Of a DNA stretch of 64,000 nt, positions 26,560-31,356 are shown piece by piece. Location: assembly GCF_041248615.1 (NCBI RefSeq), contig NZ_CP158426.1; one strand, given 5' to 3'. Under the pieces are notes generated by a model. That model worked only from the letters and a program-made list of their open reading frames with translations, did not search any database and was not told the origin of the DNA. Position 1 is the first letter of the stretch; the number at the start of each line of letters is the position of its first letter. The position numbers and the translations under genes are program-made. Source of the DNA: Escherichia coli. Its GTDB lineage: Bacteria; Pseudomonadota; Gammaproteobacteria; Enterobacterales; Enterobacteriaceae.

Positions 26560-27260
26560 GCAACTGCAGTCATTCAGGATGCTCAGGAGAGAATATGTCA
26601 ACGCCACGAGCCGGGCCATTTTCATGCCAGCCAGTATATTTTCTACACTGATGCAGTCTGATTTTCACCATTCCATCCTCACTGATTGTCGTGTTGTTTT
26701 GGGTCATCACCACAGCTTTCCGTTTCTCTTTTAATCGGTAACGCTCTCCTTTGATATTCAGCGTGGTTGAGTGATGCAGCAGTCAATCCAGGAGCGCTGT
26801 TGTCCGGCAACCACCATATCAACTTCTTCCCGGCGTGCCGGCGCTGGTATCCAGGCCGGGTTTCGAAGCGAAGCGTTCCTGACGGACTCATTGACATCCG
26901 GGCCGGATGTAGTCATGCAGCATGGAACGTCCGCCCGTATACACTGACGGCGTCCGGCCGTGTACAGAGATCGGTAAAATTCGTTACTACAACTGTTCCT
27001 GAATATCTGACGAAGAAACATTCAGCAATAACATCCGGCCGTGTACATCTCTTTTGCGGTGCAGGGAGCACTGTCGCCATGTACTTATTGTCACCAGGGT
27101 GAGGCATGTACCGCAGCATGCCAGCTCAGCAATGACAGGATGCCCTTAAGACATCCGTCATGGCTCAGTATGATGACGACGAACACGCTCTGCAGGTGAG
27201 CATGCAGGGCCGGGGGTATCATCATTTCCGTATTTTGCCGCACCTTCCGGAAACAACCGG
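26560..27260 (-). pseudogene. decayed coding region with frameshifts downstream of the 205-aa gene
   Basis: Several short minus-strand ORFs in different frames read like pieces of one protein (e.g. ...LNIKGERYRLKEKRKAVVMTQNNTTISEDGMVKIRLHQCRKYTGWHENGPARGVDIFSPEHPE*); no intact ORF. Confidence 0.3.
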
Positions 27261-27262
27261 CA

Positions 27263-27880
27263 TCAGTTACGGTTACCGTCAACCGTTGTGCGGTATGCCA
27301 GGAGCACGTACTGATCCATCAGATCCGTCAGTGCTGCGTTCTGCTTCTGACGGTCGATGATCCATTCCCCCAGCTCTTTTTCTGATTTCCGTTTCAGGTT
27401 CTCCGTCCAGTCGTCAAGGCTGTTTCCGGTCATTAAATCAAGCCAGCAAAGCCAGACCAGTTTGAGGCGCAACTCCGTGCCACCAAACTGACGGAAGAGG
27501 CTGATCAGTTTATTTGCCAGAGAACGCTGCCTCAGACGTTCACATTCAGACAGCAGAATCCCTTCCAGCATCGGATGATGAACCAGCAGATGTTCGCTGG
27601 TGCATAAGTTCACCACCAGATCATCATCCAGGGGCGGCGTGGCCCGTTTGTCAGAGCCATAAATCAGCCGGTGCAGACTCCGGGGTACGATGGCAATCTT
27701 CGGTTTTTCACCATTGAATGACACCCACCCGGGCGTCAGATTATGGAAGTAGTGGATATTCGGATGACACACGCCCCAGGATACGGCGTGCCGGGTGAAG
27801 CCGGTCAGCCATTTCTGGTAGCTTTCGTGGAGCAGCTCGTAACGGGTCTGATACTGTGGTTTCATTTTCATATTCCTCAC
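27263..27880 (-). CDS. hypothetical protein downstream of alpA
   Basis: 205-aa ORF co-directional with and 79 bp downstream of alpA; no family recognised. Confidence 0.55.
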   Translation of the reverse strand: MRNMKMKPQYQTRYELLHESYQKWLTGFTRHAVSWGVCHPNIHYFHNLTPGWVSFNGEKPKIAIVPRSLHRLIYGSDKRATPPLDDDLVVNLCTSEHLLVHHPMLEGILLSECERLRQRSLANKLISLFRQFGGTELRLKLVWLCWLDLMTGNSLDDWTENLKRKSEKELGEWIIDRQKQNAALTDLMDQYVLLAYRTTVDGNRN

Positions 27881-27958
27881 GGGGGATAACAGGCAGCAGA
27901 GTGCCGCCGGCAGGCCGGAGATTGCGTCTGCTGTGGGCGAAGGGCCAGTGGTTAAAAA

Positions 27959-28165
27959 TTACGGACGGGACTGTGCAATACGCGCCTGCAGCCAGGCTTC
28001 CACTTCACTTTTCAGCCAGCGGGAGCTGCGGCCGAGTTTGATGGGAGCCGGAAAGGCCCCATCCTTGATGAGCTTGTAAAACCACTTATCGGTCAGGCCG
28101 GTCAGCTGAGTGATAAACGTCATATCGACCATCTGGTCATCCATCAGCGAAACTGGGGTGGTCAT
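27959..28165 (-). CDS. alpA: AlpA-family phage transcriptional regulator (MerR-like HTH)
   Basis: 68-aa ORF; ...MTFITQLTGLTDKWFYKLIKDGAFPAPIKLGRSSRWLKSEVEAWL is the AlpA/Prophage_CP4-57_regulator pattern. Confidence 0.7.
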   Translation of the reverse strand: MTTPVSLMDDQMVDMTFITQLTGLTDKWFYKLIKDGAFPAPIKLGRSSRWLKSEVEAWLQARIAQSRP

Positions 28166-28548
28166 AAAAATCTTCTCCGGATGTTGTTAATCTCAGCCGG
28201 CGTTGATGATGAAAACAACGCACCACCTTCACCGGCATAACAACCGGGGAGAAACGTAAAAAATCAGTAGGGGAATATTCCTGCCAGGAGAGAAACTGTT
28301 GTGTACAGGCAATACAGGTTGTCTGTTTTGTCAGTGAAGCCGGTATAAACGGAAGATGATTTTGTGTTGCCGGAATATGGGATGGCGTTTTGCCGTGACA
28401 GGATCAGTATTTTCAGTGATGATTATTACTGTGCAGGGGAGTACCGGAGATAAACCACGCCCTGTACCTGCCAGAGCGGAGGTTTGTATTGACTGAACGG
28501 AAGATAAAGCGAGGTAAACACTGTTGCGGTGAGCGGAGAAGACTGAGA

Positions 28549-29340
28549 TTATTCTCTGTAATTACAAACAACAGTGATCTGATCCGGTTTTTTTACCGTT
28601 ACGGGTTTCCGGGGATCAATTTTATAGACCGGGGTAATGACCACGCCGGAATTTATGGAGAAAAGCGGGATCCAGCAATAAACGTCCGGATATTTCTGTG
28701 TCTCCGGAATACCTTTTGTGCCAGAGGCCATCAGATCTTTAACGCTCACGAAAAATGACTTCCGCAGATCAAAAAAGTACTCGTTATATATCACATCCTT
28801 TGCCAGCAGGATGACTGCATTACCAACAGCCGATTTTACAGGTGTTTCATCAGGTGGATTATCGTGATTGTATATTGTTCTTTCTATATAAATAAAACAG
28901 GCATATTTCGTCTTCTCCCCGGATAGTTGCATCTGGTATTCGCAAATGTCTTTGATATACCGACTTTCAACCCTTCCAATCATCTTATCCCGGCGATAGT
29001 GTCTTTTATGTTTCAGCGCGTACAGAACACCATTTGAACTGTCAAACTCCAGGACACTTCTGGTGAAAAGTTTGTTTTCCCAGATCTCCAGACAATACTT
29101 CTCTGCACTGACGACATTGCGTTTGTGGGGAAGATTCCGTTGATACACTCCATTTAATAAGCGTGACTGCAGTTCGCCTGCAAGTTGATAGTAACAGTTA
29201 ATGTCATTAAGGACAGGTGCTGTGGCGTTGAGTAATGTGTTGATTACCTTAGAGCGCGAAAGTTTGTGGGTATGACAGTACTCATCCACAATTCGCAGTG
29301 TCTCATCACTGGTCATATTGAAAGTTATACGTGTTGTCAT
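28549..29340 (-). CDS. hypothetical protein: N-terminal ribbon-helix-helix-like segment fused to a domain of unknown function
   Basis: 263-aa ORF in AT-rich DNA; N-terminus MTTRITFNMTSDETLRIVDEYCHTHKLSRSKVINTLL has a strand-helix-helix pattern; first gene of a co-directional string (263-aa gene, alpA, 205-aa gene). Confidence 0.55.
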   Translation of the reverse strand: MTTRITFNMTSDETLRIVDEYCHTHKLSRSKVINTLLNATAPVLNDINCYYQLAGELQSRLLNGVYQRNLPHKRNVVSAEKYCLEIWENKLFTRSVLEFDSSNGVLYALKHKRHYRRDKMIGRVESRYIKDICEYQMQLSGEKTKYACFIYIERTIYNHDNPPDETPVKSAVGNAVILLAKDVIYNEYFFDLRKSFFVSVKDLMASGTKGIPETQKYPDVYCWIPLFSINSGVVITPVYKIDPRKPVTVKKPDQITVVCNYRE

Positions 29341-29670
29341 GATGAAGTTTTCTGTTAATCATACTGGTTGATATGCATAACATTTCATAAAAAATACTGT
29401 TAATTCATATAATTGATTTTTTGACTGGTTTTATCCTCGTGTGGTGGAAAGCAGTATTACTGCCACTGTAGTCAGCATAAATCTATCACACAGAACCACC
29501 GAAAATGAAGCATTGCTCAGGGGGAAGCTGCCACTCGTATGAGTTCTCTGAACCATGATAACCAGTATTTTTCGTTTTGGGTGATTTGTTTATCGTTACA
29601 GCTACATACAGTTCATGTACCATTAAAAAATAATAAAGGTTAATTAGTATTATTTATAGAAGTATGTTTA

Positions 29671-29748
29671 TGTAATTCTACCGTGTAAATGAACCCTGTA
29701 ATTCTACCTTGTAAATACACCTTGTAACCAAGTCCTGTAGAAGTCTGT
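29671..29748. repeat. six tandem 13-bp iteron-like direct repeats (consensus TGTAAnTnnACCy)
   Basis: tgtaattctaccg / tgtaaatgaaccc / tgtaattctacct / tgtaaatacacct / tgtaaccaagtcc / tgtagaagtctgtc; tgtaattctacc occurs twice exactly. Confidence 0.5.
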
Positions 29749-30722
29749 CTCATAGAAGTATCTGTGCAGTGATATTCTCTGTAGTAGTACTTGTAACTCT
29801 GTTCTTAACTCTCTCTTCAGTAATGTAGTCCCGCAACACCTGAATATAAATCTGTAATGTTCACACACTGACTGTAACGTGCTTTGTTAAGTAATGTCTG
29901 CTATTTTTTTTCTGTTATTTTTCCTGTTGTTTTCTGTATTTTGTTGTATGGTGTAATAACTATTCTGAACCCGTCATCACCTTTATAGCTAAGAGTATGA
30001 CTTCGCCAGTGTTGATACTGTGGATAACGGTGATTAAGGAATTACTGTTAATGATCTGTTCCTGCAGCTCACCTGATGAGTTTTGGTAGTAATACGTAAA
30101 AGAGTATGCCTCATGTCATTAAAAAGTCTTCCGGAGTGTTGTTTAACCCTGTACCTCTGTTACTCATGTAGTACGTTGCGGAAAGCTACGTTAATTGTAA
30201 TATCTGGTTATGGCGTTATGCCTTCAGTATTAAAAACATCTTTTACCGGAGAAACTGGGAAGTGGAAAGGCTTTCGGGATAACGTCAGGCCATTATGACG
30301 ATATTACGTTAATCACAGTACAAGATAACGAGAGGGTAATGGAATTTTAAACCAGAGTAGTTCCACTGTTGTTCACTGGAAAAAGTGATTTCCCACGCGC
30401 GTTATAAGCTTACTCCAGAGGAGATGGAAGCCTTCAACTCTGCGGTCGATCACCGGCTGGCAGAACTGACCATGAACAAACTTTACGATCGTGTTCCCGC
30501 TTCAGTCTGGAAATATGTTACCTGATAAATGTTTCTGATGAAGTACAGTCGTCACAATGACATCACTTCAGATATTATCTGCGCTGTGATTGACTGTCAC
30601 GTATGCCGTTCTCTGTATGGTTCTGATACCCGGGTGTGGTCCCACTTTCTCTGTGGCGCCCGGGGAGTTGTGAACCTGCACGTCTTCGTGTGATAACGTT
30701 TTCTTCAAAAATTACGCCAGCG

Positions 30723-30754
30723 CTTCTTCCTGTGTTACAGAACACGAGGAAGAA
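30723..30754 (+). promoter_or_regulatory. hairpin sequestering the ribosome-binding site of the 30757 gene
   Basis: cttcttcctgtgtt-acag-aacacgaggaagaa: about 13-bp stem with one bulge; the right arm contains the GGAAG SD ending 3 nt before the ATG at 30757. Confidence 0.4.
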
Positions 30755-30756
30755 AC

Positions 30757-31356
30757 ATGAAGACTTACAACACCAATCCCGGTTACGAAATGGATCCCCA
30801 GCTCCTGACACACTTTAACCAGCATCTGGATTCATTATTCGGGGTATATTCGAAACTGTTACCGTTCAGAATGGATTTTGCTTACCGAAAAAACACCCTC
30901 AGCTACAGATGTGCCTGCAGGTACGCCATGTGCGCGGAGATACTGCGACTGATTAACGAAGTGGGAGAGAAACTGGTCGGGTATGCCTGGGTAATGGAAT
31001 ATACGGAACGTAAAGGGCTTCACATTCATTTTGTGGGCTATCTGAACGGTCAGAGCCACAGGAGTTCGTATCTGGTATCCAGATTGATGGGAGATATCTG
31101 GAGGCGGGTTACCGGGGGGGATGGTTACTACCACTGGTGCCGGTTTAATAAAAATTATCCGGTAAACATTAACCACGTCATTCACTATTCAGATCACAAA
31201 GCGGTGAATGCCTTACGCTATGCCATCAGCTACCTGGCCAAACGAGAACAGAAAGAATGTGGCATCATCCTGAAATGCAGCGGGCTTCCTGAAAAAAGTA
31301 ATCGGGGTCGACCGCGACTGGGCAGCCCCCTGCCGGAGACTTATTCTCTGGTGTAA
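30757..31356 (+). CDS. Gp2-like protein (inovirus Gp2 / YagK-YfjJ family, putative replication-initiator-like)
   Basis: 199-aa ORF; sequence pattern and context (integrase/alpA island) resemble YagK/YfjJ; assignment from memory. Confidence 0.5.
   Translation: MKTYNTNPGYEMDPQLLTHFNQHLDSLFGVYSKLLPFRMDFAYRKNTLSYRCACRYAMCAEILRLINEVGEKLVGYAWVMEYTERKGLHIHFVGYLNGQSHRSSYLVSRLMGDIWRRVTGGDGYYHWCRFNKNYPVNINHVIHYSDHKAVNALRYAISYLAKREQKECGIILKCSGLPEKSNRGRPRLGSPLPETYSLV

Follow-up and report, generated by a model that had tools for sequence, protein, structure and literature searches.

The 64-kb stretch of Escherichia coli DNA analyzed here (the window) is set in the pheV-tRNA island and has a 100% match in NZ_LT599825.1. 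The spacer of interest (29341–30756) is the exact gap between the start of a minus-strand gene for a 263-aa protein and the ATG (30757) of a Gp2-like gene. Genes run outward from it in both directions, the leftward operon consisting of the 263-aa gene, an alpA-like gene and a gene for a 205-aa protein, and the rightward operon of hha, the Gp2-like HUH gene and two zinc-ribbon genes. The GC content of the spacer is 39.2%, with 33–36% over 29400–30150, and the bin 29001–30000 (37.0%) is the second lowest within the window. The original prediction of an AT-rich, divergent control region with these boundaries was thus borne out. The spacer belongs to the backbone of an integrative island of the CP4/P4 type, and this host element is not a compact satellite but a mosaic pathogenicity island. 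A whole island of the same kind, including the spacer, is present in its excised form as a 41-kb circular record (CP088535.1). PADLOC gave no defense-system match for six neighboring proteins, and a literature search by protein accessions returned nothing.

The 263-aa gene (28549–29340, minus strand; found in the ORF list and as a RefSeq CDS) is the first of the leftward string. It was assigned to PF27701 (UCP007319) through precomputed annotation of homologs of its product, while a Pfam-A scan of the protein itself gave no match. Residues 6–33 showed a weak match to the NCBIfam aCcr1 RHH model (E = 0.0025), by which the N-terminus may weakly be described as RHH-like; the AF2 model of the protein was unusable (pLDDT 48). 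The alpA-like gene (27959–28165) encodes a 68-aa protein matching a PHROG excisionase/regulator family (1e-9), with PF05930 assigned to its homologs. At the left end of the spacer, the promoter-proximal segment of the 263-aa gene (29341–29402, minus strand; GTTATGCA...TATGATTAACA) is the sole stretch with homology in the compact spacers found in other genera, and in BLASTN comparisons with Citrobacter, K. oxytoca, Hafnia and Pectobacterium this homology stopped approximately 60 bp upstream of the start codon.

On the right flank, the 199-aa Gp2-like/YagK-YfjJ protein (30757–31356, plus strand) looks like an HUH (Rep-type) endonuclease, as predicted from its motifs and, more tentatively, from its modeled fold. 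The motifs H89-I-H91 and Y159-L-A-K162 were invariant in an alignment of 40 Gp2-like sequences, in agreement with the proposal that this gene is a relative of Rep-type initiators, and the HUH motif is followed by the catalytic tyrosine (Y..K), which is the order of Rep proteins and not that of relaxases. The predicted structure may have an HUH nuclease fold, its model resembling parvovirus NS1 and SIRV1 Rep. The leader of this gene (30526–30756, plus strand) is not protein-coding, as judged from identity in 50-bp bins and the substitution pattern of a 54-aa ORF within it. It is 96–100% identical to an allele in which other spacer segments are 55–92% identical, although the near-identity between alleles over 30391–30740 could reflect a recent recombination tract instead of constraint. 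The predicted fold of 30526–30770 is more stable than that of shuffled sequences (z = −2.8). Within it, the hairpin CTTCTTCCTGTGT-TACA-GAACACGAGGAAG (30724–30754, plus strand) pairs the Shine-Dalgarno sequence GAGGAAG, which lies 3 nt from the ATG; its RNA fold has a predicted energy of −19.3 kcal/mol (z = −3.9), with none of 200 shuffles equally stable. A nine-pair hairpin, in which a compensatory change affects one pair, was found at the same place before the Gp2-like genes of other genera. We infer that expression of the HUH gene is limited by this conserved hairpin, through masking of the ribosome-binding site. With an intact HUH signature and a masking leader, the role of the YagK/YfjJ/Gp2-like proteins of CP4-type islands in island biology becomes testable.

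The spacer had been considered free of genes. This was correct with one exception, a decayed hha2/hha3-type paralog at 30339–30525 (plus strand), with an ATG at 30339, a TAA at 30348 and two deletions. The early stop and the deletions were determined by alignment with the intact 70-aa allele of NZ_CP166879, and intact alleles were also found at loci L004, L014 and L034. RefSeq places a 49-aa Hha/YmoA CDS with a CTG start inside the paralog (30376–30525), corresponding to its C-terminal two thirds. The NCBIfam Hha model matched this remnant with 81.4 bits over profile positions 24–71 of 72, below its cutoff of 90, and the remnant is therefore not a full-length Hha/YmoA protein (approximately 70 aa and above the model cutoff). 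Among the genomes listed, PGAP annotated no spacer gene apart from this hha-family CDS. The widespread 49-aa "Hha/YmoA" annotation (in Nissle 1917, for example) represents a truncated hha2/hha3 gene. Regarding other candidates, the statement that no ORF of at least 60 aa is convincingly coding was upheld, the frame of a 71-aa ORF (30083–30298) being broken by non-triplet indels in a relative. The 54-aa ORF (30529–30693) was also rejected, as all four of its amino-acid differences arise from non-synonymous changes.

Island-borne hha2 and hha3 paralogs have already been described (Prieto et al., 2016, PMC4864382; Bernabeu et al., 2019, PMC6480617). As at those loci, the spacer copy is an Hha-family gene of an island, near flu/yee modules, and is chromosomal, horizontally spread and IS-flanked. 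In strain 042, island genes beside the hha paralog are reported to be derepressed in hns and hha mutants (PMC4864382; PMC6480617), and such H-NS/Hha repression of neighboring island genes (PMC6480617) is a further point of likeness. The spacer copy differs in being cut to its C-terminal 46–49 codons. Term searches of the two papers did not find the surrounding spacer or the 13-bp array described below.

Two slippage-prone low-complexity tracts lie in the spacer. The first is a 13-bp tandem array at 29671–29748 with the consensus TGTAA-W-T-NN-ACC-Y, confirmed by TRF (period 13 and period 26, score 86) and a repeat finder. Six units had been proposed to fit a common consensus; the array is real, but only four units fit well, namely, in order, TGTAATTCTACCG, TGTAAATGAACCC, TGTAATTCTACCT and TGTAAATACACCT, and these are followed by the degenerate TGTAACCAAGTCC and TGTAGAAGTCTGT. 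Similarly, the unit said to be repeated exactly is a near-identical pair sharing 12 of 13 bases. The motif TGTAANNNNACCNTGTAA was matched four times, always within the array and nowhere else in the window, with 0.01 matches expected. The array is bracketed by direct repeats (29657–29763; repeat family D3), these being TAGAAGTATGT (29657), TAGAAGTCTGT (29738) and TAGAAGTATCT (29753). The second is a T-rich tract (29900–29960) in which TRF and k-mer counts detected TTTTCTGT three times, with periods of 11–12; it is lost from an allele of 85% identity (alignment A1, columns 607–654).

The array is a hypervariable minisatellite, with gain, loss and partial duplication of units from strain to strain. 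Of 5426 complete E. coli genomes, 747 contain it, and across these 747 the span homologous to a 241-bp query ranged from 158 to 342 bp. A unit-by-unit comparison of 14 parsed loci gave 0, approximately 5, 7–9 or approximately 13 units, whereas unit number was equal among the three Nissle 1917-derived records listed. At locus L030, an 8-bp sub-unit is amplified eight times and the 13-bp register is gone, and in strain 99-3165 a deletion between the two outer bracketing repeats has removed the entire array (the array-less allele L032/L034). This is the behavior of bacterial VNTR loci, which also show head-to-tail units of 8–26 bp, strain-variable copy number and deletion between flanking direct repeats. 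The array differs from such loci in how well its TGTAA core is kept, every unit of every allele among the 14 parsed loci retaining TGTAA-W-T. In another island variant, a distinct tandem repeat of 14 bp lies about as far from alpA. Together with the retained core, this suggests that the arrays may be protein-binding sites and not the product of neutral slippage. We know of no listing of the array among E. coli MLVA loci; it could serve as a typing marker and offers a ready test of whether repeat number tunes the expression of island genes.

The same gene pair, approximately 400 bp apart, was found in six genera (Citrobacter, Klebsiella, Hafnia, Cedecea, Enterobacter and Pectobacterium), and the divergent pairing of the 263-aa gene with the Gp2-like HUH gene is thus conserved across seven genera. 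Both the array and hha were absent from the compact spacers of those six. Only the ends of the E. coli spacer are ancestral (approximately 60 bp beside the 263-aa gene and approximately 50 bp beside the Gp2-like gene), the middle 1.3 kb or so being specific to the E. coli lineage. The repeats are therefore absent from homologous islands in six genera and variable in E. coli, an outcome that the original prediction had itself named as refuting it. Common to the compact spacers is an invariant block of 23 nt, TTAATTATACTAAAAACCCAAAT, which was not found in the window even with up to 3 mismatches allowed. The sequence TAATACTAATTAACC (window minus strand, beside the array) was considered as a relative of this block and rejected (BLASTN E = 0.48; multiple alignment unconvincing). 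No conserved hairpin was found around the block, the inverted repeats seen there in Pectobacterium and Citrobacter having no consensus structure.

Eleven promoter-like sites were detected in the spacer, compared with 5.3 ± 2.1 expected. Four are supplied by the array, all leftward, where its minus strand presents overlapping sigma-70-like hexamer pairs (ATTACA/GTTACA-N16-TAGAAT) facing the 263-aa gene. AT-rich acquired DNA bound by H-NS has been described under the name of promoter islands (PMC3661553; PMC7054387). The spacer resembles these in its low GC content, an excess of hexamer pairs on both strands, its acquired origin and a presumed occupancy by H-NS. It differs in that part of its promoter-like excess stems from a tandem repeat. 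A scan for high-affinity H-NS motifs in the spacer showed no enrichment and was uninformative. The spacer is probably foreign DNA silenced by H-NS/Hha, with base composition and consensus scans pointing to the silencing and to the promoter positions.

With a probability of about 60%, we regard the region as a gene-control spacer between the divergent operons of a CP4/P4-type island and as a platform for H-NS/Hha silencing that contains a broken hha gene and a variable repeat. Such a platform is suggested by the foreign origin of the spacer, by its GC content of 33–39% (against approximately 50% for the neighboring core genes) and by its surplus of promoter-like hexamer pairs. Both operons would have their promoters inside this low-GC, promoter-rich DNA, on which H-NS/Hha silencing would act. 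The array would add to or modulate leftward promoter activity rather than bind an initiator, and expression of the HUH gene would be lowered further by the hairpin over its ribosome-binding site.

A related but unlikely possibility is that the array is an operator or activator, with tandem sites for an island protein (the 263-aa protein, through its RHH-like N-terminus, or an AlpA filament of the excisionase type) tuning the leftward alpA operon, and with unit number acting as a heritable rheostat. Direct repeats are typical binding sites of RHH and excisionase-family proteins. Survival of the TGTAA-W-T core through turnover in all alleles agrees with this, as do the position of the array approximately 330 bp upstream of the leftward operon, to which it supplies −35/−10-like hexamers, and the 14-bp repeat of the other island variant. 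In the PICIs of E. coli, AlpA activates the operon that encodes it (PMC6092414), which would also agree. However, AlpA and the 205-aa protein are 94–97% identical between island variants with wholly different arrays, which makes both of them poor candidates as array binders. The RHH assignment of the 263-aa protein is weak and its structure model failed, and its homologs in other genera occur without an array. Strain 99-3165 likewise lacks the array, yet its 263-aa gene, alpA and hha are all intact, and the amplified 8-bp sub-unit of L030 disrupts the spacing of the sites.

It is also conceivable, if improbable, that the Gp2-like HUH nickase and the RHH-like 263-aa protein, whose divergent pairing is conserved among islands of Enterobacterales, form a DNA-processing module nicking the shared spacer at a rolling-circle origin or an oriT-like site, with the TGTAA array of E. 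coli as a lineage-specific binding locus. Were this so, excised CP4-type islands would gain a route to replication or mobilization.

The original prediction took the 13-bp units for iterons of the Gp2-like initiator, in a rolling-circle double-strand or theta-type origin from which the excised island would replicate like a satellite or PICI. We consider this very improbable, and nothing was found in support of the spacer as a replication origin. In its favor are the HUH and Y..K catalytic motifs and putatively Rep-like predicted fold of the Gp2-like protein, the succession of direct repeats, T-rich tract and one perfect DnaA box, and the excised circle with its spacer, although a circular excision product is no proof of replication. 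Iteron-type (theta) origins have at least three direct repeats of approximately 17–22 bp, conserved in both sequence and spacing; here the units are 13 bp, their number ranges from 0 to approximately 13 between strains and their register is lost in one, which does not suit iterons. The genes adjoining the spacer encode PF27701, AlpA-like HTH, Hha-remnant and HUH Gp2-like products and not an initiator of the RepA, π or TrfA type, and no iteron-type Rep family was detected with NCBIfam and PHROGs (nine ORFs) or Pfam (two flanking proteins). A cluster of DnaA boxes with an AT-rich unwinding element was also absent. The perfect box, TTATCCACA (30019–30027, minus strand), is conserved in three alleles and unclustered, there are two further boxes with one mismatch in the 1.4-kb spacer (approximately 1.5 expected), and a sister allele has lost the T-rich tract.

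For HUH-Rep double-strand origins, the "bind" repeats of pMV158 and the iterons beside the stem-loop in geminiviruses and circoviruses offer a comparison. As there, an initiator-like gene adjoins non-coding direct repeats, in a divergent pair as in CRESS-DNA viruses. However, no nick-site hairpin with a conserved loop was identified and no Rep-binding repeats accompany the gene in its relatives, the sole conserved hairpin near Gp2-like genes being the stem that masks the Shine-Dalgarno sequence. The hypervariable array is missing beside the Gp2-like/263-aa pairs of six genera, and in the window a distance of 1 kb, with the unrelated hha in it, separates the array from the Gp2-like gene. The claimed resemblance to a satellite or PICI origin did not stand either. 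The origin of the PICI EcCICFT073 lies immediately 3' of pri-rep, with two iteron sets around an AT-rich core (Fillol-Salom et al., 2018, PMC6092414). The island shares with it an alpA-like gene and short direct repeats near an AT-rich tract, but has a single hypervariable set placed upstream of divergent genes and no intact pri-rep. The only trace of a primase/helicase-type gene in RefSeq is a 135-bp pseudogene fragment of an AAA family ATPase to the left of the alpA string. A distant BLASTN search of a phage collection found no similar record, the only matches in a plasmid collection were to island or chromosomal sequence classified there as plasmid, and the single match to the array pattern in IMG/VR was an unrelated giant-virus MAG contig. 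An AT-rich spacer with short repeats and a Rep-like gene is thus insufficient for calling an origin.

Equally doubtful is a transfer-type site, in which the RHH-like 263-aa protein and the HUH nickase would form a relaxosome with an oriT between them and the excised island would be nicked for mobilization. In RSF1010 the layout is mobC-oriT-mobA, which this arrangement resembles, and the divergent pairing across seven genera, the compact spacers with their invariant 23-nt block and the conserved HUH catalytic residues are compatible with it. Against it, that block is missing from the window and has no conserved hairpin around it, the motif order is that of Rep and not of relaxases, and MOB-suite typed the 41-kb circle CP088535.1 as non-mobilizable.

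That a gene for a small RNA or a small protein, such as a type I toxin, was missed in the spacer is just as remote: the stable leader fold and a readable 20-aa hydrophobic ORF in the T-rich tract (MSAIFFLLFFLLFSVFCCMV, 29894–29956) would speak for one, but Rfam matched no family in 27000–33000 at E ≤ 1, a terminator scan gave no terminator-like site, conservation tests went against the 54-aa and 71-aa ORFs, and the hydrophobic ORF is missing together with the tract from the 85% allele and is no strong sign, since T-rich DNA gives hydrophobic ORFs by composition alone. It should also be noted that there are four plus-strand copies of GATAACG (0.06 expected); two of them are not conserved in sister alleles, and the motif was judged to be a chance or minor feature.

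The kps capsule genes lie in the window, together with a mosaic island riddled with IS elements and with tRNA-Phe (pheV) and its P4-type integrase. The spacer at 29341–30756 is, as originally delimited, the exact gap between a 263-aa gene (28549–29340, minus strand) and a 199-aa "inovirus-type Gp2" gene (30757–31356, plus strand). Behind the 263-aa gene come an alpA-like gene and one of 205 aa; behind the Gp2 gene, beyond an IS1414 insertion, come two zinc-ribbon genes and one YagK/YfjJ gene. The AT-richness of the spacer was also borne out, with a GC content of 39.2% overall and 33–36% in the core, and 29001–30000 is the second most AT-rich kb bin in the window. The lowest GC of any bin (35.8%) is at 8001–9000, where the island's yee module has its left edge, upstream of kpsF. 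The 1,416-bp query was matched at 100% in E. coli NRZ14408 (NZ_LT599825.1). With a probability of about 0.6, the spacer serves as a control region carrying divergent promoters and consists mostly of acquired AT-rich DNA; it has ancestral ends with an inserted middle, a decayed hha gene, a minisatellite array and a conserved, structured leader.

The 263-aa protein belongs to family PF27701 (UCP007319), homologues of which (44–57% identity) were found in Citrobacter, Klebsiella oxytoca, Hafnia, Cedecea, Enterobacter, Pectobacterium and Aeromonas. Six of these genera likewise have the gene in divergent orientation to a Gp2-like gene (35–39% identity to that of the window), with alpA located downstream of the Gp2-like gene, unlike in the window. 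The compact spacers of these six genera (about 400 bp) contain neither hha nor a tandem array, and only some 60 bp beside the 263-aa gene and 50 bp beside the Gp2-like gene can be aligned with the window. The E. coli lineage has thus acquired the central 1.3 kb, the array included. It should also be noted that the PF27701/Gp2-like spacers (roughly 400 bp, otherwise about 67% identical) of five genera share an unchanged 23-nt block, TTAATTATACTAAAAACCCAAAT (compared loci L009, 5820–5842; L018 and L019, 4800–4822; L020, 1228–1250; L021, 4818–4840; L022, 1530–1552), which differs by one base in Citrobacter (L007). Neither the window nor IMG/VR contains this block, and a conserved hairpin around it was not detected. 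In a 7.2-kb contig labelled as a Collinsella MAG (JAIJJM010000108.1), the E. coli-type module is present at 92% protein identity, its Gp2-like gene fused by a deletion to a zinc-ribbon gene; this contig is probably E. coli DNA that was misassigned in binning.

The description of the spacer as non-coding is only partly right, as RefSeq places a 49-aa Hha/YmoA CDS at 30376–30525, matching positions 24–71 of the 72 in the Hha model (81.4 bits, under the cutoff of 90). The sister allele NZ_CP166879 (85% identical) carries an intact 70-aa hha-family gene, relative to which the window shows ATG-GAA-TTT-TAA at 30339–30350 and two deletions; the hha-family gene at 30339–30525 is therefore decayed. It is a member of the island-borne hha2/hha3 paralogues that two studies describe from pathogenic E. 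coli, strain 042 among them (PMC4864382; PMC6480617). That the spacer conceals a further gene is very improbable. In the sister allele, indels that are not multiples of three disrupt a 71-aa ORF, and in a 54-aa ORF all observed amino-acid differences come from non-synonymous changes; both were rejected as genes. A strongly hydrophobic 20-codon ORF (MSAIFFLLFFLLFSVFCCMV, 29894–29956), within a T-rich tract, has been lost by deletion from the 85% allele and so is probably a by-product of composition. The motif GATAACG has four plus-strand copies (30023, 30278, 30324 and 30692; 0.06 expected), two of which are not conserved in sister alleles.

The tandem array at 29671–29748 was confirmed, with TRF giving periods of 13 and 26, and TGTAANNNNACCNTGTAA occurs four times within it and nowhere else in the 64 kb (0.01 expected). 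Of the six units proposed, four fit the consensus and two are degenerate, while the supposedly exact unit repeat is identical at 12 of 13 bases. A 241-bp query around the array matched 747 of 5426 complete E. coli genomes, only 32 of them at 99% identity or more, with homologous spans of 158 to 342 bp. Parsing of 14 loci unit by unit gave about five units in the window, L004 and L027, seven to nine in Nissle 1917 and its relatives, and about 13 in an O111:H8 strain (L025), in which a 25-bp double unit occurs four times. Strain LD27-1 (L030) has eight copies of an 8-bp piece, TGTAATTC, with the 13-bp register gone, and strain 99-3165 (L032/L034) has lost the array by deletion between flanking TAGAAGTAT direct repeats; in the latter, alpA and the 263-aa gene are still present and hha is intact, and the Gp2-like gene is interrupted by IS3. 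This gain, loss and deletion of units indicates a slippage-prone minisatellite rather than iterons, which have fixed number and phasing. Another E. coli island variant, without the 263-aa gene and with an unrelated GC-normal spacer, intact hha and a different Gp2-family gene, has 2.5 copies of a 14-bp tandem repeat, GAGATCAAACACAT, about 370 bp upstream of alpA (L013, 4621–4655; L014, 4398–4432; L015, 4612–4646), a distance similar to that between the window's array and its leftward operon.

The spacer is probably silenced by H-NS/Hha, to judge from its composition, its excess of promoter-like sites (11 versus 5.3 ± 2.1 expected) and its likeness to the "promoter islands" already described (PMC3661553; PMC7054387); by analogy, island genes of a comparable kind in strain 042 are derepressed when hns or hha is mutated (PMC6480617). 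On the minus strand the 13-bp period repeatedly sets ATTACA or GTTACA 16 bp before TAGAAT, and the array may add to leftward promoter activity. The TGTAA core is retained in every unit despite the array turnover; a variant in which the array serves as operators is possible but doubtful.

The original prediction proposed the spacer as a candidate replication origin or control region, with the array as iteron-like repeats and the Gp2-like gene as initiator-like. The Rep-type assignment of that gene stood, with invariant HUH and Y..K motifs in Rep order, but an origin here is most unlikely. There is one perfect DnaA box (30019) and no cluster, a single repeat set rather than two flanking an AT-rich core, and, of any primase/helicase-type gene, no more than a 135-bp AAA ATPase pseudogene fragment; one sister allele lacks the T-rich tract through deletion. 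The array does not lie 3′ of a pri-rep gene, as the origin of a phage-inducible chromosomal island does (PMC6092414), varies in copy number in E. coli and is absent beside the same gene pair in six genera. No match was found in phage records or Rfam, nor any meaningful match to the array pattern in IMG/VR. The 41-kb circular PLSDB "plasmid" CP088535.1 (L016, 1–41067) is an entire CP4-type island, spanning integrase to yee module, and includes this spacer, its 263-aa gene being disrupted by IS3. In the chromosomes of other strains its junction halves lie apart, which identifies it as an excised circle; this shows excision and not replication.

The Gp2-like protein gave weak matches to PF23343 and PF11726, and its predicted fold seems Rep-like. 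Its relatives comprise 1029 representatives, many of which form the C-terminal domain of a protein of about 350 aa, and R38, D40, G75, E81, H89, H91, W115, Y159 and K162 are invariant in a 40-sequence alignment. Judging from its motifs and their order, it is probably an HUH nickase, and the Gp2-like/YagK-YfjJ y-ome proteins of CP4-type islands may likewise be active nickases. An oriT-like function of the spacer is very unlikely. The leader (30526–30756) is 96–100% identical between alleles that reach 55–92% identity in the remaining spacer segments, and ends in a hairpin (30724–30754; −19.3 kcal/mol, z = −3.9) that pairs the Shine-Dalgarno just before the ATG. At five loci of other genera a non-homologous hairpin of differing stem sequence masks the Shine-Dalgarno at the same place, with nine pairs, one showing a compensatory change (L007, 5614–5650; L009, 5637–5675; L018 and L019, about 4623–4660, minus strand).

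The hha2/hha3 paralogues, AT-rich silenced spacers and VNTRs are already-known kinds of feature; no description of the minisatellite or of the HUH/PF27701 gene pair was found in the literature searched. The HUH module of CP4-type islands is the sole lead meriting experiment. A second Gp2-like/YagK-YfjJ paralogue lies at 34328–34894. The IS1414 (IS256-family) transposase gene (31517–32725) between the Gp2-like and zinc-ribbon genes is absent from sister islands L004 and L005. Just before it, downstream of the Gp2-like gene, is the element TCAGGGACTCTGCGCATTTTTTACG (31417–31445), found in island variant L014 (5716–5742) upstream of a Gp2-family gene; these opposite placements suggest module shuffling around Gp2-family genes.
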